DNA from: Patescibacteria group bacterium
GTDB lineage: Bacteria; Patescibacteriota; Patescibacteriia; UBA2591; CALHIP01
Reading direction: 5' to 3'
DNA length: 64,000 nucleotides
Assembly: GCA_026417895.1 (NCBI GenBank)
Contig: JAOACJ010000014.1
Span: 63 to 64,062 of the forward strand
In this document: positions 3,114 through 64,000 of the stretch, piece by piece
Position numbering within the stretch: the first letter of the stretch is position 1
Layout: the number at the start of each line of letters is the position of its first letter
Program-made: the position numbers and the translations under genes
The notes under the pieces: generated by a model
Database searches by the model: none
Told to the model about the DNA's origin: nothing
What the model saw: only the letters and a program-made list of their open reading frames with translations

Positions 3114-3157
3114 TTTTTTAAAAGAAAGAGTGTAAAAAAAATTAAAAGAAAATTTTT

Positions 3158-4201: not shown

Positions 4202-4221
4202 AAATTAAAAATTAAAAATTT

Positions 4222-4791
4222 ATGCCTATGAAAGATCCATTAACTGTTTCTGATCCTAAACCAGTTAAGAAAGGATCAAAAACTTATGAAAATTTATGGA
4301 AAGCATTTGCTGGCGAGGCGCAGGCAAGAAATAAATATACTTACTTTGCTAAAATTGCTCGAGAACAGGGGATGCACCATATAGCAGGAATTTTTGAAGA
4401 AACCGCCAATCATGAATTAGAGCATGCGAAAATGATCTGGAAATTGTTAGGTGAATGGTCGGAGACAAAGGAAAATTTGAAAAAGGCGATTGAAGGAGAG
4501 AATTACGAGCACACGACAATGTATCCGGAATTTAAAAAAGTAGCCAAAGATGAGGGTTTTGAAGATGCAGTCAAATTTTTCACTGAAGTGGCTGAGGTTG
4601 AGGAACAACATGAAAAAAGATATAAAAGATTGTTGGAAGAATTAGAAAAAGGAATGGTTTTCAAAAAAGAAGAAAAGGTGATGTGGGTTTGTCGAAATTG
4701 TGGCTACCTTCACTGGGGAACCGAGGCGCCAAAAGAATGTCCGAACTGTCGACATCCGCAAAGTTACTTTGAGGTTAGGTGTCAGTATTAA
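4222..4791 (+). CDS. rbr: rubrerythrin with C-terminal rubredoxin-like domain
   Basis: Di-iron ExxH motifs ('EAQARNKY', 'ELEHAKM', 'EVEEQHE') and C-terminal 'CRNCGY...CPNC'. Confidence 0.85.
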
Positions 4792-19870: not shown

Positions 19871-20908
19871 ATGTTTGACAAAATTTTTAGTCATTTTAGC
19901 AAGGATGTCGGCCTTGATTTAGGAACAACCAATACCAGGATTTATCTTAAGGGGAGGGGTTTAGTTATCAACCAACCATCGCTTGTAGCGATTAATACAA
20001 GAGTTGATCAATTGATTGCTATTGGTTTCGGAGCAAAAAAAATGTTGGGTAAGGCGCCAACCTATGTTTCTTTAGTTAAACCGATTGAAAACGGGGTGGT
20101 TACGGATTTTGAAGTGACGGAAAAAATGCTGCGCCACGCTTTTAATAAAATTTATACAGGTTTTTTTTCTCTTACTAGACCACGAGCCATTGTTGCCGTG
20201 CCTCTTGATATTACTGAGGTAGAAAAAAAGTCCTTTGAAGACGTTATTATCCAAGCTGGGGCGAGAGAAGTTTTTTTGGTTGAAAGACCGGTTGCTGCTG
20301 CCATTGGCATGAGACTACCAGTTAACGAATCGGTTGGTAATTTAGTGGCGGAAATTGGTGGTGGTCTAACGGAAGTGGCGGTCATTGCTTTAAATGGCAT
20401 TGTTGCCTGGAAATCTTTAAAAATTGGTGGTGAAACTTGGAGTAGAAATATCTGGCAATATGTCAAAGAGAAGTTTAATCTTTTACTTGGTGAACAAACA
20501 ATTGAAGAAATCAAAATTAAAATTGGTTCAGCTTTTCCTCAAAAAGAAAAAAGAGAAATGAAAGTAAAGGGTAGAGATTTGATTACTGGTTTACCAAAAG
20601 AAATTTCTTTGACTGATGAAGAAATCAGGGAGGCAATTTCACCGTCAGTCAACTTAATTGTCGAAGCTATTTCTGACACGATTGAAAAAACGCCACCTGA
20701 ATTAGTAGCGGACATTCTTAATCGGGGCATCCTTCTTTCTGGTGGTGGAGCAATGCTTAAAGGTTTAGATCAATTGGTTAATAAAAAAGTTAAAATTCCG
20801 ACCCATCTTACCGACGATCCATTAACTTCGGTGGTAAGAGGATTAGGTTTCATTTTAGAAGATTTTGAAAACTTAAAAACAGTTTTACTTCCTTCGTCAA
20901 GAGAATGA
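19871..20908 (+). CDS. mreB: rod shape-determining protein MreB
   Basis: 'DVGLDLGTTNTRIY', actin-fold motifs. Confidence 0.9.
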   Translation: MFDKIFSHFSKDVGLDLGTTNTRIYLKGRGLVINQPSLVAINTRVDQLIAIGFGAKKMLGKAPTYVSLVKPIENGVVTDFEVTEKMLRHAFNKIYTGFFSLTRPRAIVAVPLDITEVEKKSFEDVIIQAGAREVFLVERPVAAAIGMRLPVNESVGNLVAEIGGGLTEVAVIALNGIVAWKSLKIGGETWSRNIWQYVKEKFNLLLGEQTIEEIKIKIGSAFPQKEKREMKVKGRDLITGLPKEISLTDEEIREAISPSVNLIVEAISDTIEKTPPELVADILNRGILLSGGGAMLKGLDQLVNKKVKIPTHLTDDPLTSVVRGLGFILEDFENLKTVLLPSSRE

Positions 20909-20920
20909 AATTATTAGATT

Positions 20921-21709
20921 ATGGTTTCCAGGAAAATTAAGTATTTTGTTTTTTTCATTCTTGTTTTATTATTGATTGTTTTCTATAGACTTGGTTGGCT
21001 TTTTTTTATTGGCCAAATAATGCTACCTTTCCAGAAATTGTTTTTTCAATCAGAAAGCAAATCTTGGCAACAAAAAATAGTTAGAGAAGAAGAAAAATTA
21101 AAAAATGAAATTGAAAGGTTAACCTTGGAAAATATTAAACTTAAACTTTTAGAAAAAGAAAATGAAGAATTAAAGAAAGAATTAGGATATCAAAAAAATA
21201 GTTCTTATCGAAGAAAAGTATGCCGTCTTATTGGCCGTCAGACAGAGGCAGGTGTCACTTGGTTTATTTTAGATCAGGGAGAGGAAGAAGGTATAAAAAT
21301 TGGTCAGGCAGTTGTCAGTGGCGATGTTGTCGTTGGTAAGATAGCTAAAGTAACAAAATATTTTTCCTATCTTTTACCGCTGACCGATGAAAGAACAACT
21401 TTCTCTGCCTTAACTATATCTTCGGAAGGAAAGATTAAAGAAGAAAACAAGGTCAGTGGATTGGTGAGGGGAAAATGGGGGCTGTCTTTAGAAATGGACT
21501 GGATTCCTTTGGCAAAGAAAATAAATGTTGGTGATTATGTTATTACCGCTGGCCTTGAAGAAAATATTCCTCAAGGATTGTTGATTGGTCGGATTGGAAG
21601 CATTGAAAATAAAGTCGGGGCGATTTTTCAAAAAGCCGTTGTTTTACCAGAGAAAAAAATTGAAGATCTTAATATCGTGAGTGTTATTGTTATGAACAGT
21701 CGTCAGTAA
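20921..21709 (+). CDS. mreC: rod shape-determining protein MreC
   Basis: TM, coiled coil, beta domain. Position after mreB. Confidence 0.65.
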   Translation: MVSRKIKYFVFFILVLLLIVFYRLGWLFFIGQIMLPFQKLFFQSESKSWQQKIVREEEKLKNEIERLTLENIKLKLLEKENEELKKELGYQKNSSYRRKVCRLIGRQTEAGVTWFILDQGEEEGIKIGQAVVSGDVVVGKIAKVTKYFSYLLPLTDERTTFSALTISSEGKIKEENKVSGLVRGKWGLSLEMDWIPLAKKINVGDYVITAGLEENIPQGLLIGRIGSIENKVGAIFQKAVVLPEKKIEDLNIVSVIVMNSRQ

Positions 21710-21737
21710 GTGGCGAGTTTTCACAAATTTTACTTCT

Positions 21738-22238
21738 ATGATTACAATCATCTTCAATGTCATACTCGCATTTTTACTCGCGATGGTTCAATTAGCGATT
21801 ATTCCTACTAATGAAATTTTTCTTAACCTTACTCTCTGTTTAATTATTTATTTTACTCTTTACAATTTTTCTTTTGCTTTAATTCTGTCAATTCTGACCG
21901 GTCTTTTTCTGGATATTTTTTCAATTTTTGACTTCCCTCTTTTTACCCTTTCTTTTTTATCGACGCTCTTGATAACTTATTTTTTAGTTCATCGCTTTTT
22001 TACCCTAGAGAATTTTTGGTCGTTTTTGATTGTCTCCTTCGTTGGGATAATAGCCTATCATCTTAGTTTTTTGATTTTAAATCGTTTCTTCTCTCTTTTC
22101 AAAACTACCGAAATGATAATTTTTTTCAATAAAAAATACTTTTTTTATTTAATTTCTACGACTTTAATTAATTTAGGTTTTATTTCTCTACTCTTAATTA
22201 TAACGAATAGAAAAAAAGAAAAATTTTTAATAAAATGA
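21738..22238 (+). CDS. mreD: MreD-like membrane protein
   Basis: Small polytopic membrane protein between mreC and PBP2. Call rests on position. Confidence 0.4.
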   Translation: MITIIFNVILAFLLAMVQLAIIPTNEIFLNLTLCLIIYFTLYNFSFALILSILTGLFLDIFSIFDFPLFTLSFLSTLLITYFLVHRFFTLENFWSFLIVSFVGIIAYHLSFLILNRFFSLFKTTEMIIFFNKKYFFYLISTTLINLGFISLLLIITNRKKEKFLIK

Positions 22239-24112
22239 ATATCGATTTTAACTTTCCTGAAGAAAAAATAAAAGAGAGGGTAATAAAAAATTTTTCTCAT
22301 CGTGATTTTGCCGGCGAAGAATATTCCCCGTCTTTAGACGGCGAGGCACGACGAATTGCAATTAATAAAAAAATATTTGATCTTATCCTTATTCTGTTAT
22401 TTTTCTTTATTTTTTTAAATATAATTCAATTATTCAATCTTCAAATTGTCAAAGGTAATTATTATCTAAAAGTTGCCAGAGAAAATTCTGTGCGGATTGA
22501 GCCAATTAAAGCCGGACGTGGAATTATTTACGACCGTCAGTTAAGACCATTAGTTAGAAATATTCCAAAATTTTCTCTTTTTTGGGTTCCGACAAAAATT
22601 TCTCAACAAAGAAAAGAGGAAATGATTGAAAAACTGGCTGGTATTTTGAATCAAGAAAAGGAAGAGTTATCTTTCCTACTTCAAAAAACAACTTCCCATC
22701 AACCCGTTTTAGTCAAAGAAAGTTTAAATTACGAAGCAGCACTTCTTTTTGAGATAGAAAAGGAAAACTTTCCGGGTTTAATCCTACAAATTGAACAAGG
22801 TCGTCAATATTTAATGGGCCCTGAATTTTCCCACCTCTTGGGTTATACGGGTAAGATTTCTCCAGTGGAATTGGAAAGAGAAATAGGTTATTCGTATACT
22901 GACGAAATTGGTAAAGATGGGATAGAAAAATATTATGAAAAAAAACTCCGTGGTCGAGATGGTCGAAAAAGAGTTGAAACCGATCTTAAGGGGAGAGAGG
23001 TGGTCGTTGCTCAAGAACCAGCCAAAAATGGCGAAGACGTTATTTTAACCATTGATCTTGATTGGCAAAAGAAATTAGCCGAAATTCTTGCCAGACAAAT
23101 TAAAAGTGCTGGTGCTAATAGAGGAGCGGCTATTATTTTAAATCCAAAGAATGGAGAAATTTTAGCTTTGATCAGTTATCCTTACTTTGACAATAATCTT
23201 TTTAGTCAAGGTCTTTCAAAAAAAGAATTTGAAAAGATCAGACAGGATCCTAATCAGCCACTTTTTTTCCGGAGTATTGCTGGCGAATACATGTCTGGCT
23301 CAACAATAAAACCAGTTCTAGCCTTAGGAGCTTTAGAAGAGGGGATTATTGATGAACAAACAACGATCATAAGTACTGGCGCCCTTCAAGTCGGTAACCA
23401 ATTTTATTCTGATTGGAAGAAGGGTGGACATGGACCTACTCAAGTTAAAAAGGCTTTAGCCGAATCGGTTAATACTTTTTTCTATTTGATCGGTGGCGGT
23501 GATAAAAAATTTTTAGGCTTAGGACCAGAAAAAATGAATTTTTATCTCAACCAGTTTGGCTTGGGTAAAAAAACTAACATTGATCTCCCAGGAGAAAGAG
23601 ATGGTTTTTTGCCTTCGCCGGCATGGAAAAAAACAGCAAAAAATGAGGATTGGTACATTGGCGATTCTTATAATTTATCCATTGGTCATGGCGAAATTAG
23701 GACCACCCCTCTACAGATTGCTTATTTGACGGGTCTGATTGCTAACGAAGGCCAACTATTTCAACCTCATCTTCTCAAGGAAAATTCTCTAAATCAAGAA
23801 TTTTCTACTCTCCCGTTTAAAAAAGAAAACTTTAAAATTGTTAAAGAAGGAATGAGAGAGGCGGTGATTTACGGTACCGCTAAGGCTCTAAATAATTTAT
23901 CCATCAAGGTGGCTGGTAAAACCGGAACTGTTGAGACAAATGATGGTCGACCCCATTCTTGGTTTACTTGTTTTTTTCCTTACGATGATCCGAGAGTCGT
24001 TATGACAGTTTTAATCGAAAACGGTGGCGAGGGGAGTGGTCCGGCTTTGAGAACGGTCAAAGAATTTTTAGAATGGTATATTAAAAATGAAAATTCAAGA
24101 TCAAAATTTTAA
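22235..24112 (+). CDS. mrdA: penicillin-binding protein 2 (transpeptidase)
   Basis: 'SGSTIKP' (SxxK), 'KTGT'. Confidence 0.8.
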   Translation: MNIDFNFPEEKIKERVIKNFSHRDFAGEEYSPSLDGEARRIAINKKIFDLILILLFFFIFLNIIQLFNLQIVKGNYYLKVARENSVRIEPIKAGRGIIYDRQLRPLVRNIPKFSLFWVPTKISQQRKEEMIEKLAGILNQEKEELSFLLQKTTSHQPVLVKESLNYEAALLFEIEKENFPGLILQIEQGRQYLMGPEFSHLLGYTGKISPVELEREIGYSYTDEIGKDGIEKYYEKKLRGRDGRKRVETDLKGREVVVAQEPAKNGEDVILTIDLDWQKKLAEILARQIKSAGANRGAAIILNPKNGEILALISYPYFDNNLFSQGLSKKEFEKIRQDPNQPLFFRSIAGEYMSGSTIKPVLALGALEEGIIDEQTTIISTGALQVGNQFYSDWKKGGHGPTQVKKALAESVNTFFYLIGGGDKKFLGLGPEKMNFYLNQFGLGKKTNIDLPGERDGFLPSPAWKKTAKNEDWYIGDSYNLSIGHGEIRTTPLQIAYLTGLIANEGQLFQPHLLKENSLNQEFSTLPFKKENFKIVKEGMREAVIYGTAKALNNLSIKVAGKTGTVETNDGRPHSWFTCFFPYDDPRVVMTVLIENGGEGSGPALRTVKEFLEWYIKNENSRSKF

Positions 24113-24132
24113 AATTTAAGATTAATTTTTTT

Positions 24133-24807
24133 ATGAAAAAAATTGTTATCAGTTTAGGCGGTTCCTTAATTGTGCCAAAGGTTGGTTTTTTAGATTTAAA
24201 TTTTATTAAAAAATTTAAAAATTTAATTTTAAAATTTGCCCGAAAATATAGAATTTTTATTGTTGTAGGTGGAGGGAAATTGGCTCGTTTTTATCAGCAA
24301 GAGGCCAGACATTTAAAAATTAAAAGAACCGATTTAGATTGGTTAGGTATTTTCGCTTCGCGATTGAATACTCAGTTTGTTAAAAGCTTTTTTGACCAGC
24401 AATCATTTTCGGAAATTGTTACCTCTCCTTTAAAGAAAATAAAAACAAAAAAAATCGTTTTCTTGAGTGGCTGGAAGCCGGGTTGGACCACTGATTTTGT
24501 TGCCACGAAGATTTGTCAAGTCTATAAAGTAAAAGAGATTCTTAATTTGACTAATGTTGATTATATTTACGACCGAGATCCAAGAAAAAATAAAAAAGCA
24601 AAACCATTAAAAAAAATTTCTTGGTCTGATTACCTAAAAATTATTGGTCGAAGATTTAAACCCGGCGGAAACTATCCTTTTGATCCGGTGGCAAGTTTAT
24701 TGGCCAAAAAACTAAAAATTAAGTTAATCAGCCTGAATGGTAAAAATTTAAAGGCTGTGGATAACTATTTGACAGGAAAAAAATTTATTGGTAGTATTAT
24801 AAAATAG
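24133..24807 (+). CDS. pyrH: UMP kinase, archaeal-type
   Basis: 'ISLGGSLIVP', 'VVGGGKLAR'. Similar to Pyrococcus UMPK along its length. Confidence 0.7.
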   Translation: MKKIVISLGGSLIVPKVGFLDLNFIKKFKNLILKFARKYRIFIVVGGGKLARFYQQEARHLKIKRTDLDWLGIFASRLNTQFVKSFFDQQSFSEIVTSPLKKIKTKKIVFLSGWKPGWTTDFVATKICQVYKVKEILNLTNVDYIYDRDPRKNKKAKPLKKISWSDYLKIIGRRFKPGGNYPFDPVASLLAKKLKIKLISLNGKNLKAVDNYLTGKKFIGSIIK

Positions 24808-28525: not shown

Positions 28526-28617
28526 CCCCAAATTATCCACAACCCAAAATTGACTAGTGGAAAAAAATGGGGTATTGTGTATTCGATGAATATAATTGTG
28601 GATAAATGTGGGGATAA
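28522..28617. promoter_or_regulatory. cluster of DnaA-box-like 9-mers (TTATCCCCA, TTATCCACA, TGTGGATAA, TGTGGGGATAA)
   Basis: One perfect TTATCCACA on the plus strand and one on the minus strand, plus two one-off variants, all within 96 bp. An AT-rich stretch lies upstream. Confidence 0.4.
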
Positions 28618-28679
28618 GTCAGCGAAATTGTGAATAAGTGCCGATTTTGTCTGAACGTTAGTGAAGATACAGAATCGAG

Positions 28680-28797
28680 CACCCCGCCCTTATTCCAACA
28701 ATAAACTTACAAAATATAGAAAGTAAAAGGCGAAGCCGCCTTACAGTTTTCATCTTTGTAAATCACAAGTTTTTCGAGAGAATAAGTGCGGGGTACG
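28680..28797 (+). ncRNA. conserved structured element, copy 1 (mraZ leader)
   Basis: 5' 'caccccgcccttattcc...aaaaggcgaagccgcc' and a 3' complementary arm 'gaataagtgcggggtacgg'. About 80% identical to the minus-strand element at 39226-39311. Confidence 0.35.
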
Positions 28798-28860
28798 GAA
28801 TTTTGTCCTAAAATTTCCATCGCTCTGCTCTGCGCGCTCGTAAATTTTAACCAAATTCGT

Positions 28861-33817: not shown

Positions 33818-34588
33818 AATTGATTTCTGGTGAAAAATTATTTTTAAAAAGAACATTAAAGAAAGACCAAGTACAATAAAAACAAATTGGATGAATGATT
33901 TCTTGAGAGAAGTTTCTTTTTTTAATTCCGGAATTAAATCTGAACCAGCCAAGTAAAGAAAACCGCCAGCGGCAAAAGGCAGCAGATAATTAACTAAAAA
34001 ACCTAAGGCGTTGCTCAATAATAAAGTGATGACTGCCCCTAAAAAGGCACTTAAGGCAGAGAGAAAATTGAAAAATAAAGCCCGCCATTTAGAAAATCCA
34101 CCATAGATTAAAACACCAAAATCACCAATTTCTTGAGGAATTTCGTGAAAAATTACAGCCAAGGTTGTACTAAGACCCAAAGGAAAACTTATTAAATAAG
34201 CTCCAGCCATAATACTGCCATCAATAAAATTGTGAACGGCATCACCAATAATATTGAGATAGGTAAGAGGGTGTGGATGACTAGCGGTAGTAGGCAGGTG
34301 ACAATGTCGCCAGCCAATAAATTTTTCTAAAATAAAAAAACCCAAAAGACCAATCAAAAGTAAAAAGGCCGTTCTTTTGCCAAAACCAAATTCTTCAACT
34401 GCTTCAGGGATTAAATGGAAAAAGGCACTGCCAAATAAACTACCGACTGAAAAACTGACTAAAAAAAGTAAAATTTTTTTTAATTTCTCCTCACTGATGG
34501 CAAAGGTAAAAACACCAATTAGTGAGACGAGACTGATAATTAAAACGGAGATAAAAACTGTTAACCAAATCATATAAATTAAAACCAT
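33815..34588 (-). CDS. ZIP-family metal transporter (ZupT-like)
   Basis: 'HEIPQEIGDFGVLIYGG', His-rich TM helices. Confidence 0.75.
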   Translation of the reverse strand: MVLIYMIWLTVFISVLIISLVSLIGVFTFAISEEKLKKILLFLVSFSVGSLFGSAFFHLIPEAVEEFGFGKRTAFLLLIGLLGFFILEKFIGWRHCHLPTTASHPHPLTYLNIIGDAVHNFIDGSIMAGAYLISFPLGLSTTLAVIFHEIPQEIGDFGVLIYGGFSKWRALFFNFLSALSAFLGAVITLLLSNALGFLVNYLLPFAAGGFLYLAGSDLIPELKKETSLKKSFIQFVFIVLGLSLMFFLKIIFHQKSI

Positions 34589-36350: not shown

Positions 36351-36839
36351 TTATCGCGTGATGGAAATATTCGTCGCTGGTGCCTCGGCTCCACAGGCCC
36401 CAACCGTTACTCGACCACCTTCTACTTTTACCGCATAATAGCTAGTATTAGCTGTGCCATTAACTGGATCTGACGGTCGGGTGGAAAGGTAGGTGGGGAC
36501 AAGGGCACTGATAAAATCTTGACCGGTACATCCTTTATTGATAGTGCCAAGATCACCTTTACTACAATCAATGTTGCATTCAGCGGCAGAGGTAGCATTG
36601 CCAATGACTTTTGCGTCTGAGGTTAAACCAGATGGCCAGGAACCGTTATTGTCAATATAATACTGAAAAATGGCATTGAGGATAGCCAAGATATCATTTC
36701 TTCGAGCAGCATTTCTTGCTTGAGCTAATTGCCTGGTCGGATTAACAGCGACAATGACAATGCCGGTCAAAATTGAAATAATGCCAATGACAACCAGAAG
36801 TTCGATAAGAGTAAAACCCTTTTTCTTTTTCATACTCAT
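36351..36839 (-). CDS. type IV pilin (major pilin candidate)
   Basis: Canonical prepilin leader 'MSMKKKKG|FTLIELLVVIGII'. Confidence 0.75.
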   Translation of the reverse strand: MSMKKKKGFTLIELLVVIGIISILTGIVIVAVNPTRQLAQARNAARRNDILAILNAIFQYYIDNNGSWPSGLTSDAKVIGNATSAAECNIDCSKGDLGTINKGCTGQDFISALVPTYLSTRPSDPVNGTANTSYYAVKVEGGRVTVGACGAEAPATNISITR

Positions 36840-36844
36840 AATTT

Positions 36845-37921
36845 TTATTTCTTCAATAGATTTATCTCGACTTTTTGAAAATCTTTTTCTAAGGCTCTCA
36901 GAGCCAAACCGATAACATTAGCCGATAAAATTCTTTTTTCTTCTTGAGCCAAAAAATCACCCTTGATATTTGTTAATGGTTCGCCCCTCGTTGTCTCCAA
37001 ACCAAGTTTTTTTTGAAAATAAGCACTAATGCCTGGCAGTAAACTTGAACCACCAGCCAGAATAATTTTTTTAACTTGATGGTAGGTCGTCTGCTGGTAA
37101 AAGATTAAAATCCTTCTTGCTTCATCAATAATTGGTAGCGCTTCCTTTTTCAAAACTTGTTCTACCTTGGGATATTTCTGAGGACGAAAGCCTTCTGCCA
37201 CTTTTATTTTTTCTGCCTCTTCAAAAGATAAACCAAGAGCTTCTGAGACTTTTTTAGTAAAAAGATTACCAGCGACACGAAGATAATGGTTGAAAACTAA
37301 TCCTCTTTCGTCAAAAAGACTAAAAACACTTGTTCTCTGACCAATATCAATAATCAATATACCTTCATCCTTTGGAATCTCTTTGATTAAAGCTCGTCTC
37401 AAAGAAAGCGGTTCTAAATCAAAAACTATTGGTGTTAAATGAGCAATTTTCAAGGTTTCTTGCCAGTCATCAATTAACTCTTTTCGACAACCAGCAAAAA
37501 AGACTTGTTGGATTTTATTTATTTTACCAATAATTTGAAAATCTGTGTAGAGTTGGGATGTGGATAAAGGAAAAACTTGTTCGGCTTCATAGATTAAGGC
37601 TTCGGAAAGCTCTTTCTGAGTTAAATTGGCGGGTAGTTGAAAAAGATAAGTAAAAACCTGAGAGCTGGGTAAAGAAAGCAAACAAAATTTTTCTTTAATT
37701 GGCCTTGGTTTCGCTTGATCGAGAACCTCTCTAATGTTTTTCGCTAACTCATTTTTTTCTTTAATTAAACCATTTTCTACTAACTGAGCTGATGGTAATT
37801 CTTTATGACCATAACTTTCAATTTCTATTTTACTTCCTTTTCTTTTTAAAATTAAAGCTTCAATCGAGGTATCAGAAACATCTAAACCAAAAGCTTGTTT
37901 TTTTTGGAAACCAAATAACAT
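36845..37921 (-). CDS. pilM: type IV pilus assembly protein PilM
   Basis: Actin-like ATPase fold, 'FGLDVSDTSIEALIL'. Confidence 0.75.
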   Translation of the reverse strand: MLFGFQKKQAFGLDVSDTSIEALILKRKGSKIEIESYGHKELPSAQLVENGLIKEKNELAKNIREVLDQAKPRPIKEKFCLLSLPSSQVFTYLFQLPANLTQKELSEALIYEAEQVFPLSTSQLYTDFQIIGKINKIQQVFFAGCRKELIDDWQETLKIAHLTPIVFDLEPLSLRRALIKEIPKDEGILIIDIGQRTSVFSLFDERGLVFNHYLRVAGNLFTKKVSEALGLSFEEAEKIKVAEGFRPQKYPKVEQVLKKEALPIIDEARRILIFYQQTTYHQVKKIILAGGSSLLPGISAYFQKKLGLETTRGEPLTNIKGDFLAQEEKRILSANVIGLALRALEKDFQKVEINLLKK

Positions 37922-37955
37922 AAATTAGCAATGGGAATTTGAATATTGTCTTATC

Positions 37956-39161
37956 TTATTGTCCTATTTGCCCAATAAATTGATAAATTGGCAGAATAAT
38001 GGAAACGGCTAAGAGACCAACACCCAGACCAATAATAATCAGTAAAATTGGTTCAAGGACACTGGTTAAATTTTTAATCGTTCGATCAACCTCAGTTTCA
38101 TAGAAATCAGCTAAATAATGAAAAGAATCTTCAAGGTTACCAGTTTTTTCCCCGACATTCAAAATTTTTGCTACTGATAAAGGAAATTCTTGGGGAAAGT
38201 TTTCTAAATTTGAGGCAAGGGTTTCGCCGCGTCGAAGAGCGGGAATAATTTTTTCTAAAGTTTTTTTATAAACTTCGTTACCGATTGTTTCAGCGACAAC
38301 TTCAAGAGATTTCGGTAGAGTCAGTCCACTTTTTAAAAGCGTCTCACTCGTTCGGGCAAATTGAGCCAAATTATTATTTTTTGTCAATCGACCAAAAATG
38401 GGTAGTTTAAGATAAAGAATGTGCAAAATCGATTTTATTCTCCTCAGTTGAGAGAGAAACCGAAAAACAATGACTAAGAGGATTAGACCAATAAGAATAA
38501 AAAGTGTATTTTTAGCGAGAAAGTTCATAATAGAGAGAAAAATTTTAGTAATCAGAGGAATAGAAACATCAAGTTTCGCAAAAAGACTAAGAATTTTTGG
38601 TAAAAGAAACTGAGAAAGTGCCAAAGAAAGAAGAATAGCCACGATCACCACAATCGTTGGGTAGGTGAGACTGGCTTTGACCTTTTTTTTCAATTCATAT
38701 GATTTTTCTAATTGTTCAGCCAGATAGACAAGAGAAGATTCTAAAGTACCACTTGACTCAGCTGTTTTAATGACACCAATAAAAAGAGGAGAGAAGTATT
38801 TTGGATAAAGAGCAAAAGAAGAGGATAAAACTTCTCCTTGCTCAACCCTTTTTTGAATTTCCGCCAGAATAGTTTTTAATTTTAAATTTACAGTTTGTTC
38901 AGAAAGAGTTTTTAAAGATTCGCTCAAAGAGAGGCCACTCTTAATCATCATCTGTAAATTTCTGACTAAATTGATTTTTTCTAATTCTGAAATGCGACCA
39001 AAACTGAAAAGAGGTTGTCTTTTCACCCTCTTTGGTATTAAAGAAATAATAATCAAGTCTTGGACTAAAAGCATTTTGGCGGCTTCATCTTTATTAGCTG
39101 CCTCAATTTCTCCTTTTTTTATTTGTCCGGCTTTAGTGGAAACAGTGTATTGAAAAAGCAT
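37956..39161 (-). CDS. pilC: type IV pilus platform protein PilC (GspF family)
   Basis: Two GspF repeats, three TM segments. Confidence 0.85.
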   Translation of the reverse strand: MLFQYTVSTKAGQIKKGEIEAANKDEAAKMLLVQDLIIISLIPKRVKRQPLFSFGRISELEKINLVRNLQMMIKSGLSLSESLKTLSEQTVNLKLKTILAEIQKRVEQGEVLSSSFALYPKYFSPLFIGVIKTAESSGTLESSLVYLAEQLEKSYELKKKVKASLTYPTIVVIVAILLSLALSQFLLPKILSLFAKLDVSIPLITKIFLSIMNFLAKNTLFILIGLILLVIVFRFLSQLRRIKSILHILYLKLPIFGRLTKNNNLAQFARTSETLLKSGLTLPKSLEVVAETIGNEVYKKTLEKIIPALRRGETLASNLENFPQEFPLSVAKILNVGEKTGNLEDSFHYLADFYETEVDRTIKNLTSVLEPILLIIIGLGVGLLAVSIILPIYQFIGQIGQ

Positions 39162-39225
39162 ACCAATTTTCTTATCTCTTAAAAATTTTAAGATATCATT
39201 GAAAAAATTTTTACTAGAAAATTGA

Positions 39226-39311
39226 GTACCCGCGTACAGGGCCGTTAGGCGGTTTCGCCTTTAGTCTTTCTCTGTCGGAAGTTTATCGCTGGAATAAGTG
39301 CGGGGTAAGGG
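39226..39311 (-). ncRNA. conserved structured element, copy 2 (pilB-pilC intergenic)
   Basis: The minus strand reads 'cccttaccccgcacttattccagcgataaacttcc...aaaggcgaaaccgcctaacgg...gtacgcgggtac'. Same orientation relative to its downstream gene as copy 1. Confidence 0.35.
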
Positions 39312-39364
39312 TTTTCTGGATAAATTTTCTACAACTTTTGTCTTGAAAATTTATATAAAATTCT

Positions 39365-41056
39365 TTATTTAGTTACTCTTAAAACCTCTTCAACTGTTGT
39401 TAAACCCAAAAAGACTTTTTCTAATCCATCTTCAATCATCGTCGTCATTCCTTTTTGACAAGCCAGAGTTCTTATTTCGTCGGTATTTGCCTTTTGCATA
39501 ATTCTTTCTTTAATTTCTTCTTCTGGTTCCAACACTTCAAAGATACCAGTTCGTCCTGCATAACCAGTTTGATGACAAGCTTCACAACCAAGACCATGGT
39601 AAATTCTTATTTTTTCCTTATTTTGAATTGATTTTAAAAAGCGAGTTGGTAAATTACCAACACCGCTGAGTAAACTAAGAAATTCTTTCTGACTAATTTC
39701 TTCACTGACAATACACTTTCGACAGATAAGCCTGACTAGTCTTTGGGCAATGATGACATTGACTGTCGAAGCAATTAAAAACGGCTCAATGCCCATATCC
39801 ATTAGCCTAACTATGGTTGTCGGCGCATCATTGGTGTGCATCGTCGAAAGAACAAGATGGCCGGTCAAGGCGGCATTAACAGCAATGCCAGCTGTTTCTT
39901 GATCTCGAATTTCACCAACCATTAGAATATCGGGGTCTTGTCTAACTAAAGCCCTTAACCCTTGAGCAAAGGTTAAATTTGTTTTTGGATTAACTTGAAT
40001 CTGATTAACGCCCTCAATGTCATATTCAACCGGATCTTCAATAGTGGCAATATTAATATCTCTTTTATTGAGAATTTTTAAAATGGCGTAAAGGGTAGTG
40101 GTTTTACCACAACCAGTTGGTCCGGTAGCTAAAATCATTCCCCACGGCTTTTCAATATTAGCTCGGACAACTTTTTCATCTTTTGCTAAAAAACCAAGAT
40201 CTTCTAAATTAAAACGTCTGATCTTTTCGGAAAGCAATCTTAAAACTGCCTTTTCTCCTTTAGTCACCGGAACAATCGAAACACGGATATCAACTTTTTC
40301 ATTTTCGAATGTTTCTGAAAATCGACCGTCTTGAGCGGCAAAATGCTCATCAGTTCTGAGTTTAGCCAAAAGTTTAATTCGGGAAATAATATAATCATGA
40401 ATATCTTTTGGCAATTCTAAAACATCATGAAGAATTCCGTCAATTCTGAATCGGACAACTGTTTTTTTCTCAAATGGTTCGAAGTGAATATCTGAAACTC
40501 GATTTTGATAAGCGTAATTAATAATTGTGTCTAAAATTTTAATGATCGGCAACTCTTTTTCCTCCTCTTCTGCTTTTTTAGTATATTCTTCAATCAGATT
40601 TTGAAATTCTTGCTTTAATCCCTTTTTGTATCGGACTAGATTTTCTTTTAAATCTTTTTCGGTCGCATAATAAGGGATAACTTTAAAACCAGTCTTTTTT
40701 TCGATTAAAGAAATAATCTCTAAATCTCCCGGATTATTCATTGCTAGCTTAATTTTCATTCCTTTTAGATCTTGACCGAAGGCCATTACCTTTTGTTTTT
40801 TAGCCACCACTTCTGGAATTATATTTAAATCATCTTCTTTAATAATTTCTTTTTTTAAATTGACAAAAGGATAGCCAAGAAATTCTGCTTTGAGTTGTCC
40901 TAACTGTTCATCGCTCATTTTGCCTGAGCTGATAATTAACTCCTCTAAATTTTTGTTTTCTTCTTGAGCTTGTTTCTCTAAATTTTGAAAATCTTCAGGA
41001 CTTAAAAATCCCGGCTCAACTAGAATTTTCTTCAATTGTTCACTTGTTAGTTCCAT
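39365..41056 (-). CDS. pilB: type IV pilus assembly ATPase PilB (GspE family)
   Basis: Walker A 'GPTGCGKTTT', tetracysteine 'CRKC...CEAC'. Confidence 0.9.
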   Translation of the reverse strand: MELTSEQLKKILVEPGFLSPEDFQNLEKQAQEENKNLEELIISSGKMSDEQLGQLKAEFLGYPFVNLKKEIIKEDDLNIIPEVVAKKQKVMAFGQDLKGMKIKLAMNNPGDLEIISLIEKKTGFKVIPYYATEKDLKENLVRYKKGLKQEFQNLIEEYTKKAEEEEKELPIIKILDTIINYAYQNRVSDIHFEPFEKKTVVRFRIDGILHDVLELPKDIHDYIISRIKLLAKLRTDEHFAAQDGRFSETFENEKVDIRVSIVPVTKGEKAVLRLLSEKIRRFNLEDLGFLAKDEKVVRANIEKPWGMILATGPTGCGKTTTLYAILKILNKRDINIATIEDPVEYDIEGVNQIQVNPKTNLTFAQGLRALVRQDPDILMVGEIRDQETAGIAVNAALTGHLVLSTMHTNDAPTTIVRLMDMGIEPFLIASTVNVIIAQRLVRLICRKCIVSEEISQKEFLSLLSGVGNLPTRFLKSIQNKEKIRIYHGLGCEACHQTGYAGRTGIFEVLEPEEEIKERIMQKANTDEIRTLACQKGMTTMIEDGLEKVFLGLTTVEEVLRVTK

Positions 41057-41057
41057 A

Positions 41058-41426
41058 TTAAAGGTGTTTTTTTATTCTTTCCACTACTTCCGGCAGTGAT
41101 TGTTGAGATTTAACAAGATAATCAACGGCGCCAAATTTCAAAGCTTTTTCCCGATCTTGTTCTTGACCCAAACAGGAAAGAATGATAATTTTTGTTTCTT
41201 TTATCTTATCACTTTTTTGTTTTTCGGCCAAAAATTCAAAACCATCCTTTTGGGGCAAAATCAAATCAAGGACAATCAAATCATATTTTTTTTCTTGAAT
41301 TTTTTTTAGGGCCTCTTCACCATTAAAAGCTGTTTCAACCTCTAAATTAGTCTCAGAACTAGCTAACTTTGAGGCCAAAAGTTTGGCCAAAAATTGATCA
41401 TCCTCAACAATAAGAATTTTTTTCAT
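41058..41426 (-). CDS. response regulator, receiver domain only (PilH/CheY-like)
   Basis: 'ILIVEDDQF...DLIVLDLILPQKDG'. Confidence 0.8.
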   Translation of the reverse strand: MKKILIVEDDQFLAKLLASKLASSETNLEVETAFNGEEALKKIQEKKYDLIVLDLILPQKDGFEFLAEKQKSDKIKETKIIILSCLGQEQDREKALKFGAVDYLVKSQQSLPEVVERIKKHL

Positions 41427-41487
41427 ATTGCGATACTAATACACCTGAGAGAAGCTAATGATGCGAATTTTTATCATCAATATTCAT

Positions 41488-42708
41488 TTATTTGTTGGTA
41501 TCGATTTGGTCTTTTAATTTCGTCTTTTCGTAGGGGAGGGTAAAATAGAAAGTTGAGCCCTTATTTTCTTCTGATTCAAACCAAATTTTGCCTTTTAAAT
41601 CATCGATAAGTTTTTTAACAATATAAAGGCCCAAACCAGTACCGTCGGGTTGATAACGAAGAGCATTGGGTGCCCGAAAGAATTTTTGAAAAATATCTTT
41701 TTGTTTATCTTTAGGAATACCAATCCCTTCATCTTTGATAGAAATTATAATTTCTGTATCAGTTTTTCCGGCAGTAATTTTAATTTTTCCGCCTGGTCGA
41801 GAATAATTGATGGCATTTGAAAGAATATTATTAAAAATAATCTCTAAGAATTTCTGGTCCAAGAAAACTTTAGGTAAAAACTGCTTTTCAAAAATAATTT
41901 TTAATCCCTTTCCCTCGATTAAAAAATTAAACTGTTTAATTTTTTCTTCTAAAAAGAGATTAAGGTCTGTCTCTTGACTTCTGGTTTTAATTGGTTTTCC
42001 ATCTAAATCAGTAATGGCTAAAAGATCGTTCACTGATTTCATCATTTTTATCTGGGCGCGCTTAATTTCTTCCAGATATTCTCTTTTTTCTACGTCAACT
42101 TTTTTATTCTCAAGTAATTCGTCGGTGATCCAACCAATTGAAGAAATCGGCCCACGTAACTGATGACTGGCAATGGTAATAAACTCACTCTTTTTTTCGT
42201 CAAGTTCTTTCAAAAAATCAATTTCTTTTTTAGCTTGAAGGGCAAGAAGAAAACTTAAATAACTAATAATCGCCACCGAAGAAAGACTTAAAAAAACGAA
42301 ATCAAGAAAAAACGAAATTTTTAACCAGATACTTAAACCAAACATTAAAAGATAATAAAAAACAATAATGATTAATAAACCAATGAGAGCTGGAATATGG
42401 GCAGTGGAAGCGGCGGCTAATAAAGGTAAAAAAATAAAAGGAAAAAGCGGGCTTTGGAAAGAACCGCTGAAGTGGATAAATAAAAGGATAAAAAGGGTAT
42501 AAAAACCTAAATCAATAAAAAATTTTTCATAACGCCAATATCTTTTTGAGATGAAAAATAAACTGATGAACGAATAAAAAGTCATGGCAACGATGATAGA
42601 TAGAAACCAGAGAGATTCTTTAGGTGGGAAAAAATAAAACCAAACGAGGAGAATCAAAATTAAAATTGGCACTACTAAACGAAAAATTTTATGATACTGT
42701 TCGTACAT
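41488..42708 (-). CDS. sensor histidine kinase (polytopic N-terminus, PilS-like)
   Basis: H-box 'ASHQLRGPISS', HATPase 'GTGLGLYIVKKLIDDLKGKIW'. Confidence 0.8.
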   Translation of the reverse strand: MYEQYHKIFRLVVPILILILLVWFYFFPPKESLWFLSIIVAMTFYSFISLFFISKRYWRYEKFFIDLGFYTLFILLFIHFSGSFQSPLFPFIFLPLLAAASTAHIPALIGLLIIIVFYYLLMFGLSIWLKISFFLDFVFLSLSSVAIISYLSFLLALQAKKEIDFLKELDEKKSEFITIASHQLRGPISSIGWITDELLENKKVDVEKREYLEEIKRAQIKMMKSVNDLLAITDLDGKPIKTRSQETDLNLFLEEKIKQFNFLIEGKGLKIIFEKQFLPKVFLDQKFLEIIFNNILSNAINYSRPGGKIKITAGKTDTEIIISIKDEGIGIPKDKQKDIFQKFFRAPNALRYQPDGTGLGLYIVKKLIDDLKGKIWFESEENKGSTFYFTLPYEKTKLKDQIDTNK

Positions 42709-50309: not shown

Positions 50310-50372
50310 AATAAAATTTTTAATTTCTAATTTTGAATTTTGAATAAATTTTTAATGGTCTAATTTTGAAAG

Positions 50373-50678
50373 ATGAAGAAATATGATTTAGAAGAGAGAA
50401 CGGCAAATTTCGGTGAAAAGGTAATTAAATTCTGTAAAAATTTAAAACAAGATGCTATTTCTAAACCGATTATCAGTCAATTAATTCGCTCAAGCACGAG
50501 TATCGGTGCCAATTATATGGAAGCTAACGCTGCCAGTTCAAAGAGAGATTTCAAAAATAAAATTTTTATCTGTAAAAAAGAAACTCAAGAAACAAAACAC
50601 TGGTTACGGATGTTGGCTCAATATTTCTCAGAGAGAAGCAGTGAAATCAAAAACTTTGGCAAGAGGCACAAGAGTTGA
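50373..50678 (+). CDS. four-helix-bundle protein (23S rRNA intervening-sequence protein family)
   Basis: 'SQLIRSSTSIGANYMEA...KRDFKNKIFICKKETQETKHWL' matches the family pattern. Confidence 0.65.
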   Translation: MKKYDLEERTANFGEKVIKFCKNLKQDAISKPIISQLIRSSTSIGANYMEANAASSKRDFKNKIFICKKETQETKHWLRMLAQYFSERSSEIKNFGKRHKS

Positions 50679-50718
50679 CTTTAATTTTCGGCAAAATTAT
50701 TGGCTCACTCAATAAAAA

Positions 50719-51459
50719 ATGATTTTTAAAATTCAAAAATTCAAAATTGATTCAAAATTAAAAATTCAGAATTCAGAATTGACAAATAAAGGTTTTACTC
50801 TCATTGAAATTCTCTTATACTTGGCCATTGTTTCGGTAGTGCTGGTTGTCGGCACTATTTTTATTTGGCAGGTCATTGAGGGTGGCGAGCGGGCGAATCA
50901 ATTAGAAGAACTGCGCGAAGCCAGCCGTTTTGTTTTAGAAAAAATCAGTCAAGAGGTAAAAAAAGCTAGAAATGTTTTAGATCCACCGAGTTGTCAGAAA
51001 TTTACCAATCAAACAGATTGTCAAAGTTATTGGGCTTGTCTCTGGCAGAATAACAAATGTTTTGTTACTTGCACTAGATACAACAATCAGCCTGATTGCG
51101 AAAATCATAATTGTATCTGGAGTAACGGTGTCTGCAGTGGCAGTGAGCCAAAAAATCTCTGCCCAGTCGATCCGGAAAACAATAAAGAAACTTGTTTAAC
51201 GATTGCCAAACCTGATGGAACTATGGTTAAATTTTATCGCCAAACTTATACAAATGTGAAAAGGATTGTTCAAAAAACAGGAAACAACGAGCCAGTAGGT
51301 TTGACCTCTGGCTTAGTTGACATTACTTCGTTGAAAATTGCTAATCTTTCACCCGACAAAGGATCAGGCATCATTAGAATCGAAATGACCTTAAAACACA
51401 AAAATAATCCACGTCTAACCTTTACTGCCCAATCTTCTATTTCTTTACGCGATAATTAA
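50719..51459 (+). CDS. prepilin-type protein with Cys-rich globular domain
   Basis: 'TNKG|FTLIEILLYLAIVSVV', then 10 Cys ('CQKFTNQTDCQSYWACLW..CFVTC..'). Confidence 0.6.
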   Translation: MIFKIQKFKIDSKLKIQNSELTNKGFTLIEILLYLAIVSVVLVVGTIFIWQVIEGGERANQLEELREASRFVLEKISQEVKKARNVLDPPSCQKFTNQTDCQSYWACLWQNNKCFVTCTRYNNQPDCENHNCIWSNGVCSGSEPKNLCPVDPENNKETCLTIAKPDGTMVKFYRQTYTNVKRIVQKTGNNEPVGLTSGLVDITSLKIANLSPDKGSGIIRIEMTLKHKNNPRLTFTAQSSISLRDN

Positions 51460-58387: not shown

Positions 58388-59123
58388 ATTTTTTGGACAC
58401 CTTTTATTATCATTGTCGTCTGGTTTTTGGCTGGTTTGCGAGTCGTTCAACAATACGAAAGGGGTGTTGTTTTAACTCTTGGCCGTTATTCTTCAACTCG
58501 TTTGCCGGGGCTAAATTGGATTCTGGTTGGTATTCAAAAAATGATCAAGGTTGATGTCCGAGTCAGAACTATTGATATTCCTAGACAGGAAGTCATTACT
58601 TCTGATAATGTCACTGTTGGTATTAACGCCGTAGTTTTTGTTAGAGTAGAACGAGCCGAAGATGCGGTTTTAAAAGTTCAGGACCATGTCTATGTCATTT
58701 CTCAATATGCCTTAGGTGCCTTGCGTGATGTCATTGGTGGCGTAGAACTTGATGTTTTATTAACCCAAAGAGAGAGAATTGCCGAAGAGATTAAAAAAAA
58801 TTGTTGACCAAGCCACTGAGCCTTGGGGAATTGATGTACCGGAAATTAAAATTCAAGACATTGAACTACCGGCCGAAATAAAAAGAGCCTTGGCAAAGCA
58901 AGCCGAGGCGGAAAGAGAAAGACGGGCGGTAATTATTAAAGCCGAAGGTGAATTAAAAGCTTCAGAAAATTTATCGGCAGCAGCGGCAAAATTAGCTAGT
59001 ATGCCTGGCGGCTTAACTTTAAGAACTTTAAAAACGATTGAACAGATTAATCCCGATCCTTCAAAAACTGTTATTTTCGCTTTACCGATAGAAATTATTG
59101 AAGCCTTGAAAAAAAATTGGTAG
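58388..59123 (+). pseudogene. SPFH/band-7 (stomatin-like) gene with a frameshift in an A8 run and no standard start before the TM helix
   Basis: 'VVQQYERGVVLTLGR...' in frame 1 and 'IVDQATEPWGIDV...' in frame 2 join if one A is removed at 58793-58800. Confidence 0.55.
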
Positions 59124-61929: not shown

Positions 61930-64000
61930 AAAATTTCTTTTGACCGGTCTATCAATTTTGTTTTTAATCATTCTTTTCTTTAATATCTCGTTTTGGCAAA
62001 GTATTTTGATCGGTCTTCTATTTTCTATTTCCTACTTTCTTGTTTCTGGTCTTTGGTTGGGTAAAATTTTAGGTAAAATTTTAAACTTAGATACAGAATG
62101 GCGATTTCTATTTGGCTTATTTCTTCTTCTTTATTTAATAGCTTTTAGTCTGGCTCTACCAGCTGTTTTTTACAAAATCACGCCAGTCTATTTCTATGTT
62201 TTTCTATTGTTACTGACATTAACTATTAGTTTCGTTAATCATTTTTTGAACAGAAAAACAAAAATTCAAAATGACAAACTCCAAATTCCAAAAAATGGCC
62301 AAGATTCTCAATGTTTTTTTAAAAATTTAAAATTAAAAATTAAAAATTTCATTCCCTATCTTCTCTATTCCATTTTCTATATTCCAGCCTTCTTGCTACT
62401 GATCAAAGCTAGGACTGGTCAATACTTAGATTCGCCTTGGCAAGTTATTTCACCTCTTTATCTTATTTTTTTCTCTTTTATTTTTTTTCTTACCGTTTTG
62501 TTCATTTTTTCTCAAAAAAAACCTTTTACAATTTTAATTTTTATTATCTTGGCCTCTTTTTTACTTCATGCTTATTTACCAATTGTTCATGAAAATAATT
62601 TTGGCGTTGACCGCTGGCGTCAGTTAGGGGCAGAAAGAAGACTAATGGCTGGTCAAATCGAAGCACCGGCTCTTTTTGGCGGAGTGATAAAATATAAAAA
62701 AATTGGCCCCCTTCAAATTCCCGAAGTTTTTTTTGCTGCTAATAAATTTTCTTACGCCAGTAATTGGGGTCTAACAATTGGTTTAAGTTGGCTCACTGGC
62801 ATTGACATTTTTTATCTTGATTTATTTTTAATTTTGATTCTTTGGTCGGTTTTTTTACCAATTTTTACTTTTCAGTTAGTTAATTTAATTTTTAAAAATG
62901 AAAAAATTGCTCTTCTTTCTAGTCTTGCCGTTCTTCTTCCTTTTCCATTCCAAACAGATGGAGCGATTACTTTACCAAAAACTGTCAGTTTTCTTTTCTT
63001 TGTTTTTGCCTTGATCGTTATTTTCCAATATCTAAAAGGTCAAAAAAAACTTTTGCCCCTAATTATTTTTTTCTTTCTTATTCTTTCTTTCCATTACATT
63101 CTTTTCTTGATTTTATCTCTAGAAATTTTTATTTTTGGTCTAGTCCTGAAAACTCAGCCAAAAAAAATATGTTTAAAAAAAATTTTTTTATTTTTATTTT
63201 TTATTATTTTTTCCTTAAGTCTAATTTTTTTAGATCGAATTTCTGAAACAAGCTTTTTTCAGTATAAACTTTCCGAAATACCTCAAGTTTTTCCTTCAAA
63301 AGTTAAAGATTTTTTAAAAAAAATTCTTCTTGGCCAATATTTCTATTATTTTGAACAAGGTCAACCCCTTTTTCCTTTAAAACCTAATTTCTTTTTTGTC
63401 CTTTTTGTTTGGTCTTTGGTCATTGTTGGTTTAATAAAAAGCTGGAAAAAAGATAGGTGGATAAAAATTTTAGCCATCTTTCTATTAATTTTAATAATCA
63501 ACCAGTTTTTGAGTCTCTCTTTAATGAAAAATTATCGACTTTTAGCCAGACGGTCGTCGATGATAACTATTTTTCTTCTCGTTATCTTTTTTTCTGTTGG
63601 TCTCATTGAATTGATAGAAATTAAATTGATAGAAAAAGTAAATTTTAAGCCAAAGTTAATTACCATTCTACTCAGCGTCTTTTTGACTATTTTTGCCAGT
63701 ACCACTTATGCCTCTGGACCATATAATTTAGGCACAGTAACGCGTAGCGAACTTGGGGTGGCAAGATTCCTTTGGCAAGAAATAAAAAAAGAACCAAAAA
63801 AAAGGTTTTGTATTTTTGATTCAAGTTGGCGACTTTTGGCTTTAGAGGCAGAGTCAGGTATCATTGCTGGCAATTTTCCTTTTCATCCCATTGACTTTGT
63901 TCAAAAAGAAAAAGATGAATTATATCGACAAATGCTTAAAAATCCTTCCAGAGAAATTTTAAATCAAACTTTAGAAATCACTGGTGCAGAAAAATGTTTT
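61898..64000 (+). CDS. large polytopic membrane protein, 3'-truncated by the window edge (possible glycan polymerase or membrane glycosyltransferase)
   Basis: An open frame of about 700 codons with many predicted TM helices. The call rests on its position after GT2 and GT4. Confidence 0.35.
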   Translation, partial: MEMWPSIGENKKFLLTGLSILFLIILFFNISFWQSILIGLLFSISYFLVSGLWLGKILGKILNLDTEWRFLFGLFLLLYLIAFSLALPAVFYKITPVYFYVFLLLLTLTISFVNHFLNRKTKIQNDKLQIPKNGQDSQCFFKNLKLKIKNFIPYLLYSIFYIPAFLLLIKARTGQYLDSPWQVISPLYLIFFSFIFFLTVLFIFSQKKPFTILIFIILASFLLHAYLPIVHENNFGVDRWRQLGAERRLMAGQIEAPALFGGVIKYKKIGPLQIPEVFFAANKFSYASNWGLTIGLSWLTGIDIFYLDLFLILILWSVFLPIFTFQLVNLIFKNEKIALLSSLAVLLPFPFQTDGAITLPKTVSFLFFVFALIVIFQYLKGQKKLLPLIIFFFLILSFHYILFLILSLEIFIFGLVLKTQPKKICLKKIFLFLFFIIFSLSLIFLDRISETSFFQYKLSEIPQVFPSKVKDFLKKILLGQYFYYFEQGQPLFPLKPNFFFVLFVWSLVIVGLIKSWKKDRWIKILAIFLLILIINQFLSLSLMKNYRLLARRSSMITIFLLVIFFSVGLIELIEIKLIEKVNFKPKLITILLSVFLTIFASTTYASGPYNLGTVTRSELGVARFLWQEIKKEPKKRFCIFDSSWRLLALEAESGIIAGNFPFHPIDFVQKEKDELYRQMLKNPSREILNQTLEITGAEKCF

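Follow-up and report, generated by a model that had tools for sequence, protein, structure and literature searches.

MITEs are defined as small (<~400 bp) and non-coding elements (PMC3184786), and they are further characterised by terminal inverted repeats, by a target-site duplication, by several copies at differing sites in related genomes, by long stable stem-loops and by a cognate transposase that acts in trans and stems from an IS with matching ends. ERIC repeats (enterobacterial repetitive intergenic consensus, ~127 bp) are MITE-class imperfect palindromes over their whole length that are non-coding, lie between the genes of operons and are co-transcribed. TA flanks both termini of ERIC-like repeats, with a TA target-site duplication, and co-transcribed ERIC copies can alter the mRNA decay of neighbouring cistrons (PMC3184786). 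The Correia elements of Neisseria (CREE/NEMIS) are small non-autonomous repeats with terminal inverted repeats (TIRs) of 26 bp and defined sequence, are often located by gene starts, occur in full-length and internally deleted classes, and carry an IHF site and proven promoters. Differences in site among strains have been taken as evidence of their mobility (PMC3184786). The pneumococcal BOX and RUP repeats are modular, hairpin-forming and non-coding, and they occupy intergenic positions in the operons of a small AT-rich genome, BOX being a boxA-(boxB)n-boxC array. REP/BIME/REPIN elements are mobilised by RAYT, and REP units are GC-rich palindromes of 20-40 nt. Palindrome-associated elements derived from IS200/IS605 have subterminal hairpins at ends that are not inverted copies, make no duplication and insert 3' of a fixed tetra- or pentanucleotide; an orientation bias would be natural for single-strand (HUH) transposition. 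Structured mRNA leaders and riboswitches appear as GC-rich structured islands in AT-rich 5' or intercistronic regions, on the sense strand and with covarying helices.

In this study, we analysed a stretch of 64,000 nt of Patescibacteria DNA, called the window hereafter, together with related sequences designated L002, L003 and so on. The 64-kb window holds two copies of a repeat family, one in the pilB-pilC spacer and one in the mraZ leader (Table 1). With a probability of roughly 80%, we consider that the pilB-pilC spacer is a non-autonomous, MITE-like mobile repeat belonging to a new ERIC/Correia-like family in a Patescibacteria clade; as far as sampled, the family is restricted to this one clade.

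Table 1. Coordinates of the repeat copies, their modules and flanking genes in the window, and the insertion sites of the family.
Feature	Position	Strand	Description
Whole repeat unit, copy 2 (W_A)	39163..39365	-	203 nt, fills the entire pilB-pilC spacer
5' terminal AT-rich hairpin module of W_A	39308..39365	-	Inverted twin of the 3' module; MFE hairpin
Central module of W_A	39228..39307	-	The stretch flagged by the initial annotation
Apex hairpin AGGCGAAACCGCCU of W_A	39247..39260	-	Conserved in sequence, without covariation
3' terminal AT-rich hairpin module of W_A	39163..39227	-	Covariance model match 39159-39233, 66.8 bits
pilC (T2SSF)	37956..39161	-	Intact, downstream of the insertion; homologues at 100% coverage
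pilB (T2SSE ATPase)	39365..41056	-	Upstream of the insertion
Copy 1 (W_B)	28637..28859	+	223 nt, full length; mraZ leader, from the third GTGGATAA-type box to the mraZ ATG (28861)
Site A			pilB-pilC junction; filled in the window and L002
Site B			mraZ leader; filled in the window, L006, L023 and L024
Site C			After a 384-aa gene; filled in L002, empty in the window (34574-34581)
Site D			Upstream of the mraZ promoter; filled in L022, empty in L023 and the window
Site E			After the mraZ stop codon; filled in L023, empty in L022 and L024
Site F			pilC-pilM junction; filled in L003 (305-nt variant)

The stretch 39226-39311 is a GC-rich island in the AT-rich DNA of the window. The initial annotation had described it as the second copy of a conserved structured element whose first copy lies upstream of mraZ, and this relationship was borne out by alignment: ~65 nt are common to 39226-39311 (-) and 28681-28795 (+), where chance expectation is 0, and copy 2 lies on the strand of its flanking genes. 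The block shared by the two copies reads ACCCCGCnCTTATTCCAnCnATAAACTT...AAAGGCGAAnCCGCCTnAC. A 27-nt 5' block, CCCCGCnCTTATTCCAnCnATAAACTT, recurs at 28682-28708 (+) and 39279-39305 (-) with 0 mismatches (0.00 in window shuffles), and the apex hairpin motif AAAGGCGAAnCCGCCT occurs in the window at these two copies only, with 0.09 expected. The homology runs outward to the pilB stop codon and to the pilC and mraZ start codons.

The full unit of the family is ~205-305 nt long, non-coding and an imperfect palindrome over its whole length; the self-reverse-complement z was 2.6-6.6 in four of the five copies and 1.7 in L006. Folds of the full copies (z -4.6 to -8.4) and RNAalifold on five copies showed three consecutive hairpins, namely an AT-rich 5' hairpin of ~50-60 nt, a central hairpin closed by ACCCCGC.../...GCGGGGUAC (ACCCC(G)C.../...G(C)GGGGUAC) with the apex AAAGGCGAAGCCGCCUU, and an AT-rich 3' hairpin of ~60 nt. 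A single long hairpin formed by the whole unit was considered and rejected, because RNAalifold and the covariation counts support the three-hairpin fold instead. The element ends read AAGARTTTTGTTCAAAATT..., and the central arm differs in sequence among copies (GTGCTGGGTAC, GGAGGCGGGGTCC, GTGAGGGGGCAC). The two terminal modules repeat one another in inverted form, and each folds into a hairpin. The covariance model of the 3' module found the 5' modules on the opposite strand in L022 (47.8 bits) and L003 (53.5 bits), and more weakly in W_B (15.3 bits) and L006 (21.4 bits). The five-copy structure pairs 89% of cells, compared with 32-48% when partners are slid, and 23 of its 56 pairs are double-changed, compared with 4-6 in the slid controls; these pairing and double-change values were reached in 0/500 shuffles. 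In the 3' module, compensatory changes affect 12 of the 20 pairs (8 copies), and they are also seen in the stems when the modules of L002 and the window are compared. Covariation of this kind is equally expected for a DNA palindrome and for an RNA structure, and the counts of G-U and A-C mismatches showed no strand preference.

Copy 2 (W_A) was matched at 39362-39159 by nhmmer with a five-copy profile (E 2e-40). The copy begins on the last base of the pilB stop codon (TAA), terminates 1 nt 5' of the pilC ATG and has TA at both junctions. The 3'-module covariance model recognised the 5' module of W_A at 39300-39369 on the opposite strand (45.9 bits, E 9e-9). The outer stem of the W_A 3' module is CAAUUUUCU/AGAAAAUUG, and its end lies 2-3 nt 5' of the pilC AUG. 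In the central module, a conserved interior and the apex hairpin lie between the 5' arm UACCCCGCACUUAUUCC and a 3' arm that is truncated; the module is closed by UACCCCGC at 39307-39300 and GCGGGUA at 39234-39228. When W_A is aligned with copy 1 and the other full copies, ~34 nt are missing from the 3' half of its central hairpin. This loss accounts for the shorter closing helix, which the initial annotation had correctly noted, and for the weak fold of the copy. Relative to shuffles, W_A on its own shows no significant structure, with z = -0.59 in the core and -1.68 over the entire spacer; the values for copy 1 were -5.0 (core) and -4.6 (whole unit). The hairpin architecture of the family, in contrast to the fold of this single copy, is supported by covariation. 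Read on the + strand, W_A has a T-rich run after its apex hairpin and looks terminator-like there.

On the one hand, the closest relative, L002 (PilC 77% identical), has the same gene order and shares the pilB-pilC insertion. On the other hand, the pilB-pilC spacer of L016-L019 (PilB 62-63% identical) is 7-10 nt long and holds no element. The gap of 203 nt in the window is abnormally long, as the initial annotation had stated, but the empty junctions of these relatives, with the insertion shared by L002 only, speak against its proposal of a conserved element for the differential control of pilC; lack of the element in relatives was the very observation by which that proposal was to be judged. 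L022 and L023 have flanks that are 99.8-100% identical, yet they differ at sites B, D and E. In addition, the short-read contigs L002 (at both ends) and L023 break inside copies, L002 having the 3' end of its site-A copy at one end and the 5' part of its site-C copy at the other. The six sites, the differences between filled and empty sites in near-identical strains and the contig breaks together identify a multi-copy mobile repeat. Accordingly, the comparison argues for a mobile insertion at pilB-pilC and against a regulator of pilC that is conserved there. A scan of metagenome contigs revealed one true relative, L006; a scan of a genome collection with a two-block pattern, which was probably too strict, gave only a chance match in an Acidobacteria coding region (L001), and a search with PilB homologues returned no close relative.

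The first 12 nt of L002 (ACCCCGACCGCG) have no confident alignment, possibly as an assembly edge effect. Positions 1-20 of L002 form a perfect 20-nt palindrome, ACCCCGACCGCGGTCGGGGT, immediately 5' of the 3' module. Either the central hairpin is strongly shortened in that genome, or the palindrome is an artefact of the assembly at the contig edge.

The surroundings of the pilus genes also differ among these genomes. In the relatives L016 and L018, pilB-pilC-pilM-pilin is flanked by the PBP2 gene on one side and the amino-acid kinase/L10 genes on the other. The window (19871-24807) has the kinase (24133) directly after PBP2 (22235-24112), and its pilus genes (36351-42708) are encoded on the opposite strand at a distance of ~12 kb, where a histidine kinase/response regulator pair precedes them; judging from gene order, the pilus operon is relocated in the window. 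In L003 (GCA_964450195.1, 2664-4783), pilC is cut to 257 aa and pilM is split into ORFs of 127 aa and 172 aa, and the pilus operon appears to be decaying in this genome.

With the termini aligned, TA was found at 9/9 left and 7/7 right junctions, where the element boundaries were set by eye in AT-rich DNA, in which TA is common. The left junctions read ...TA/AAGARTTTT... (sites A, C, E and F) or ...TA/AGTGCCGATTTTG (site B), and the right junctions ...TTGG/TAtg or ...TTCG/TAtg, the slash marking the element boundary. At sites A, E and F, the upstream TAA stop is rebuilt by the first A of the element. The TA on the right overlaps the ATG, and where sites C (window) and E (L022, L024) are empty, a TA marks the precise point of insertion. 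These junctions would be compatible with a TA target-site duplication, no one site combining both junctions with an empty counterpart that is isogenic. If TA was duplicated, site A as reconstructed without the element would have no pilB stop codon.

At all six sites (6/6) the element is co-oriented with the flanking genes, which has a probability of ~1/64 if orientation is random. Where the 3'-module model matches the minus strand at the ends of L002 and L023, it recognises the 5' module, inverted, of a copy in forward orientation; the ACCCC start of the central module comes next. The orientation bias points to strand-specific selection, an RNA-level role or strand-specific transposition. It counts against a cut-and-paste TIR element, since such an element does not predict co-orientation. 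An antisense terminator was also considered as the cause of the bias and was found to be a weak candidate, as the terminator-like feature is absent from other copies.

Copy 1 occupies the mraZ leader. The mraZ gene has a sigma-70-like promoter (TTGACT-17-TATTGT at 28550-28578), and three direct boxes, GTGGATAA, GTGGGGATAAG and GTGAATAAG, follow 3' of it. Promoter and boxes together (28550-28640) are near-invariant in all relatives, and the dcw cluster of this clade probably has its MraZ operator here. From box 3 to the mraZ ATG, ~210 extra nt are present only in the window, L006 and L023/L024. The mraZ leaders of L007, L009, L011, L015, L025 and L108 are without the element, and several relatives with MraZ 87-90% identical have no mraZ copy. 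The copies of the mraZ leader group together (71-88% identical) compared with paralogues (60-70%). Between the window (28637-28859) and L006 (519-724), the leader copies are 88% identical over 204 nt; the corresponding identities are 84% for the promoter/operator block, 68% for RsmH, 72% for PBP and 55% at the third codon positions (synonymous) of mraZ. The differences in mraZ begin at the very first codons, and recent recombination is thus an unlikely source of the 88% identity. These comparisons indicate that the mraZ-leader copy evolves far slower than neutral DNA, which is unexpected for junk DNA. In the L006 copy, changes in the apex break the structure, and the arm has lost 12 nt.

In L022, the mraZ-leader site (3136-3320) holds a different, GC-rich long hairpin of 185 nt with TA...TA flanks, the arms GGGTAGTTGC / GCAACATACCC, an MFE of -54 kcal/mol and no Rfam match. 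It may represent a second repeat family using the same hot spot.

When the family is set beside the described systems, the copies (203-305 nt, non-coding) agree with MITEs in size and in lacking genes. They also agree in having terminal inverted repeats, as recognised by the 3'-module model on the 5' modules, and several copies at differing sites in related genomes (sites A-F). Long stable stem-loops are formed by the full copies, W_A reaching only z = -1.7. With ERIC, the family shares the imperfect whole-length palindrome, the intergenic position in operons, the lack of coding sequence, the TA flanks and, most likely, co-transcription. It differs from ERIC in phylum, in having no sequence similarity, in length (~205-305 nt versus 127), in the three-hairpin build with AT-rich terminal hairpins, and in the strict sense orientation at six sites. 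In common with Correia elements, it is a small, non-autonomous TIR repeat, often by gene starts, with a full-length and an internally deleted class (223 versus 203 nt, with the 34-nt internal loss). Unlike Correia elements, it has hairpin modules of ~60 nt as inverted termini, no promoter consensus and an unrelated sequence; we take the family termini (AAGARTTTT.../...AAWTTSG) to be unrelated to the Correia TIR. The likeness to BOX/RUP lies in the modular hairpin-forming build, the non-coding intergenic position in operons and the small AT-rich genome, but the BOX array, compared by description, has no inverted twin ends and no sequence relation to the family. Hairpins at both ends and the 6/6 orientation bias fit an IS200/IS605-type element, whereas inverted-twin ends and TA on both sides do not fit such an element, the ends of which are not inverted copies. 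REP sequences likewise have hairpins near both ends but are much shorter, as stated above. Finally, the family resembles structured leaders and riboswitches in forming GC-rich structured islands with covarying helices on the sense strand of AT-rich 5' or intercistronic regions. Unlike a conserved cis-regulatory RNA, it is absent from the orthologous junction of other relatives, belongs to no RNA family described in Rfam 15 and moves among unrelated loci.

Searches for known components gave the following results. With Rfam 15, the gathering threshold applied to the whole window left only tRNAs, and E-value searches up to 10 with both copies and L022 gave only sub-threshold miRNA-like hairpins or noise. 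The element contains no ORF of at least 25 aa, and the only ORF of at least 20 aa overlapping the pilB-pilC spacer is a 24-aa GTG ORF. Pfam searches of ~50 ORFs of the window detected no transposase or integrase domains and no RAYT/TnpA, and no autonomous element with matching ends was found, the transposase search covering the window ORFs. By blastn, no meaningful match was obtained with plasmids and phages, and there was no match with 20,395 E. coli records (5,426 genomes), which carry ERIC, REP and BIME; hence, by sequence, the element is not ERIC, REP or BIME. Two scans of viral contigs gave only seed-level matches, which nhmmer showed to be due to chance.

Four further features were observed elsewhere in the window. 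At 50315-50371 and 50724-50780, inverted repeats of 57 nt (77% complementary) flank a small gene of the 23S rRNA-intervening-sequence protein family (50373-50678), beside a pilin-like gene, and 50315-50780 may be another inserted cassette. At 3088-3160, between the bacA-like and pyrimidine-dimer glycosylase genes, the covariance model of the 3' module weakly matched an AT-rich hairpin (19.2 bits, E 0.024), which may be either a module standing alone or just a terminator rich in AT. Runs of short AAAATT/AAATT-type repeats lie in the spacers 4175-4227, 50310-50371 and 62310-62353 (families D1, D5, I3 and I15). A Band_7/SPFH domain is split over the overlapping ORFs 58427-58807 and 58779-59123, and the split may reflect a frameshift, a pseudogene or an error in the sequence.

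Several explanations other than a mobile repeat were considered for the spacer. The element could act in cis as an RNA within the pil mRNA, either dedicated to this role or exapted for it, and its hairpins would set the pilC:pilB ratio via processing, stability or translation; its origin may have been a mobile repeat that selection later retained. We regard this as doubtful, but as having an appreciable chance. Compensatory changes keep the hairpins, all six sites are in sense orientation, and the 3' hairpin ends just before the AUG. The insertion persists in the window and L002 despite 23% divergence of PilC and in streamlined genomes, the 3' module at pilC being 72% identical between the two compared with 55% at the third codon positions of pilC. 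The slow change of the mraZ copy (88% versus 55% at synonymous sites) and the effects of co-transcribed ERIC and Correia repeats on mRNA decay (PMC3184786) are in line with such a role. However, the pilB-pilC junction of all relatives other than L002 is without the element, W_A has lost much of its central hairpin and folds like shuffles, and the L006 copy combines disruptive changes at the apex with the deletion in its arm. Moreover, the mismatch counts (G-U, A-C) are without strand preference, the family also occupies unrelated sites, and no Rfam family is matched. A further reading is that the element serves as a portable operon spacer, with ends that fit the TA of stop and start codons and with sense hairpin RNA as a transferable post-transcriptional control under selection; this seems unlikely to us. 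Its first A rebuilds a TAA stop and its flanking TA keeps the ATG. On this reading, the module would now be under purifying selection in the mraZ leader and retained in the pilus operon, and the sense orientation of all six insertions would be accounted for.

The initial annotation had also suggested an internal promoter, which here would drive pilC-pilM-pilin independently of pilB. This is improbable. TAAAAT or TAAAAA boxes open the 3' module in several copies, outward promoters are known in Correia elements (PMC3184786), and sense orientation at every site would fit. Nevertheless, no sigma-70-like site with 16-18 nt between the hexamers was predicted in 39100-39420 on either strand (0 sites; 0.8 in shuffles) or in the site-B copy of L023, and other copies gave matches no better than those of shuffles, at positions that do not correspond between copies. 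The A/T boxes are paired stem columns, so that pairing explains their conservation, and there is no -35-like hexamer, a GC-rich stem lying upstream. It is very improbable that the element is a DNA-level protein-binding module (e.g., MraZ-type boxes) wiring pilC to the mraZ regulator. The central arms GTGCGGGGTAAG / GAATAAGTGCGGGG resemble the mraZ boxes GTGGGGATAAG / GTGAATAAG, and one copy directly adjoins the mraZ promoter boxes, but the likeness is loose, the arms vary among copies whereas the promoter boxes are near-invariant, and box-like spacing periodicity is absent. The arms concerned (GAATAAGTGCGGGGTAAG/C) lie at 39292-39311 (+) and 28778-28797 (+), and their likeness to the boxes may be a coincidence or an operator-like sequence in the repeat. 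Hardly any probability falls to an independent small RNA gene or antisense terminator on the + strand of the spacer. There, the apex hairpin and T-rich run scored as terminator-like in both window copies, and in W_A the sole terminator-like site is on this strand, at 39247-39260, with no intrinsic terminator on the sense strand. Against this, no promoter lies upstream on the + strand, the feature is absent from the copies at site B of L023, site D of L022 and site F of L003, the stem has only 5-6 bp, and Rfam has no match.

We prefer the mobile repeat as the explanation of the spacer. In this model, the element would move in trans via a presumed transposase with a TA target preference, inserting at TA dinucleotides in very short spacers, often at the TA of a TAA stop or of T-ATG, and it would survive only in the tiny spacers of a compact genome. 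As it is shared with L002, W_A would be an old insertion, which would later have lost ~34 nt of its central hairpin. Most likely, W_A is transcribed through within the pilB-pilC mRNA; no promoter or sense terminator is predicted, and read-through transcription is therefore the simplest reading. A junction of 7-10 nt would thereby have been replaced by 203 nt of hairpin-prone untranslated RNA, and translation of pilC would be expected to become uncoupled from pilB. As a secondary, exapted effect, the insertion may also change how the mRNA is processed or how stable it is locally, through RNase cleavage or decay-barrier sites analogous to those of ERIC and Correia repeats. The codon positions of pilC are 81/89/55% identical between the window and L002, which indicates that pilC downstream of W_A is under purifying selection. 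As pilC is intact and apparently under such selection, the insertion must allow pilC expression. The element may also have a selected regulatory role.

Patescibacteria (CPR) genomes are small and streamlined, and they are usually held to be poor in mobile DNA. In our literature search, no MITE-like repeats were found described for Patescibacteria. Our analysis indicates that a hairpin repeat is tolerated in the tightest junctions of core operons, namely those of dcw/mraZ and the type IV pilus. Such a repeat would explain odd long spacers and contig breaks in CPR assemblies, and it could be used as a marker for strain-level genome dynamics. It also advises caution against calling GC-rich structured islands in CPR genomes riboswitches. 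Should selection lie behind the sense bias and the slow change of the mraZ copy, the family would represent a regulatory RNA spread by transposition in an ultra-small genome.
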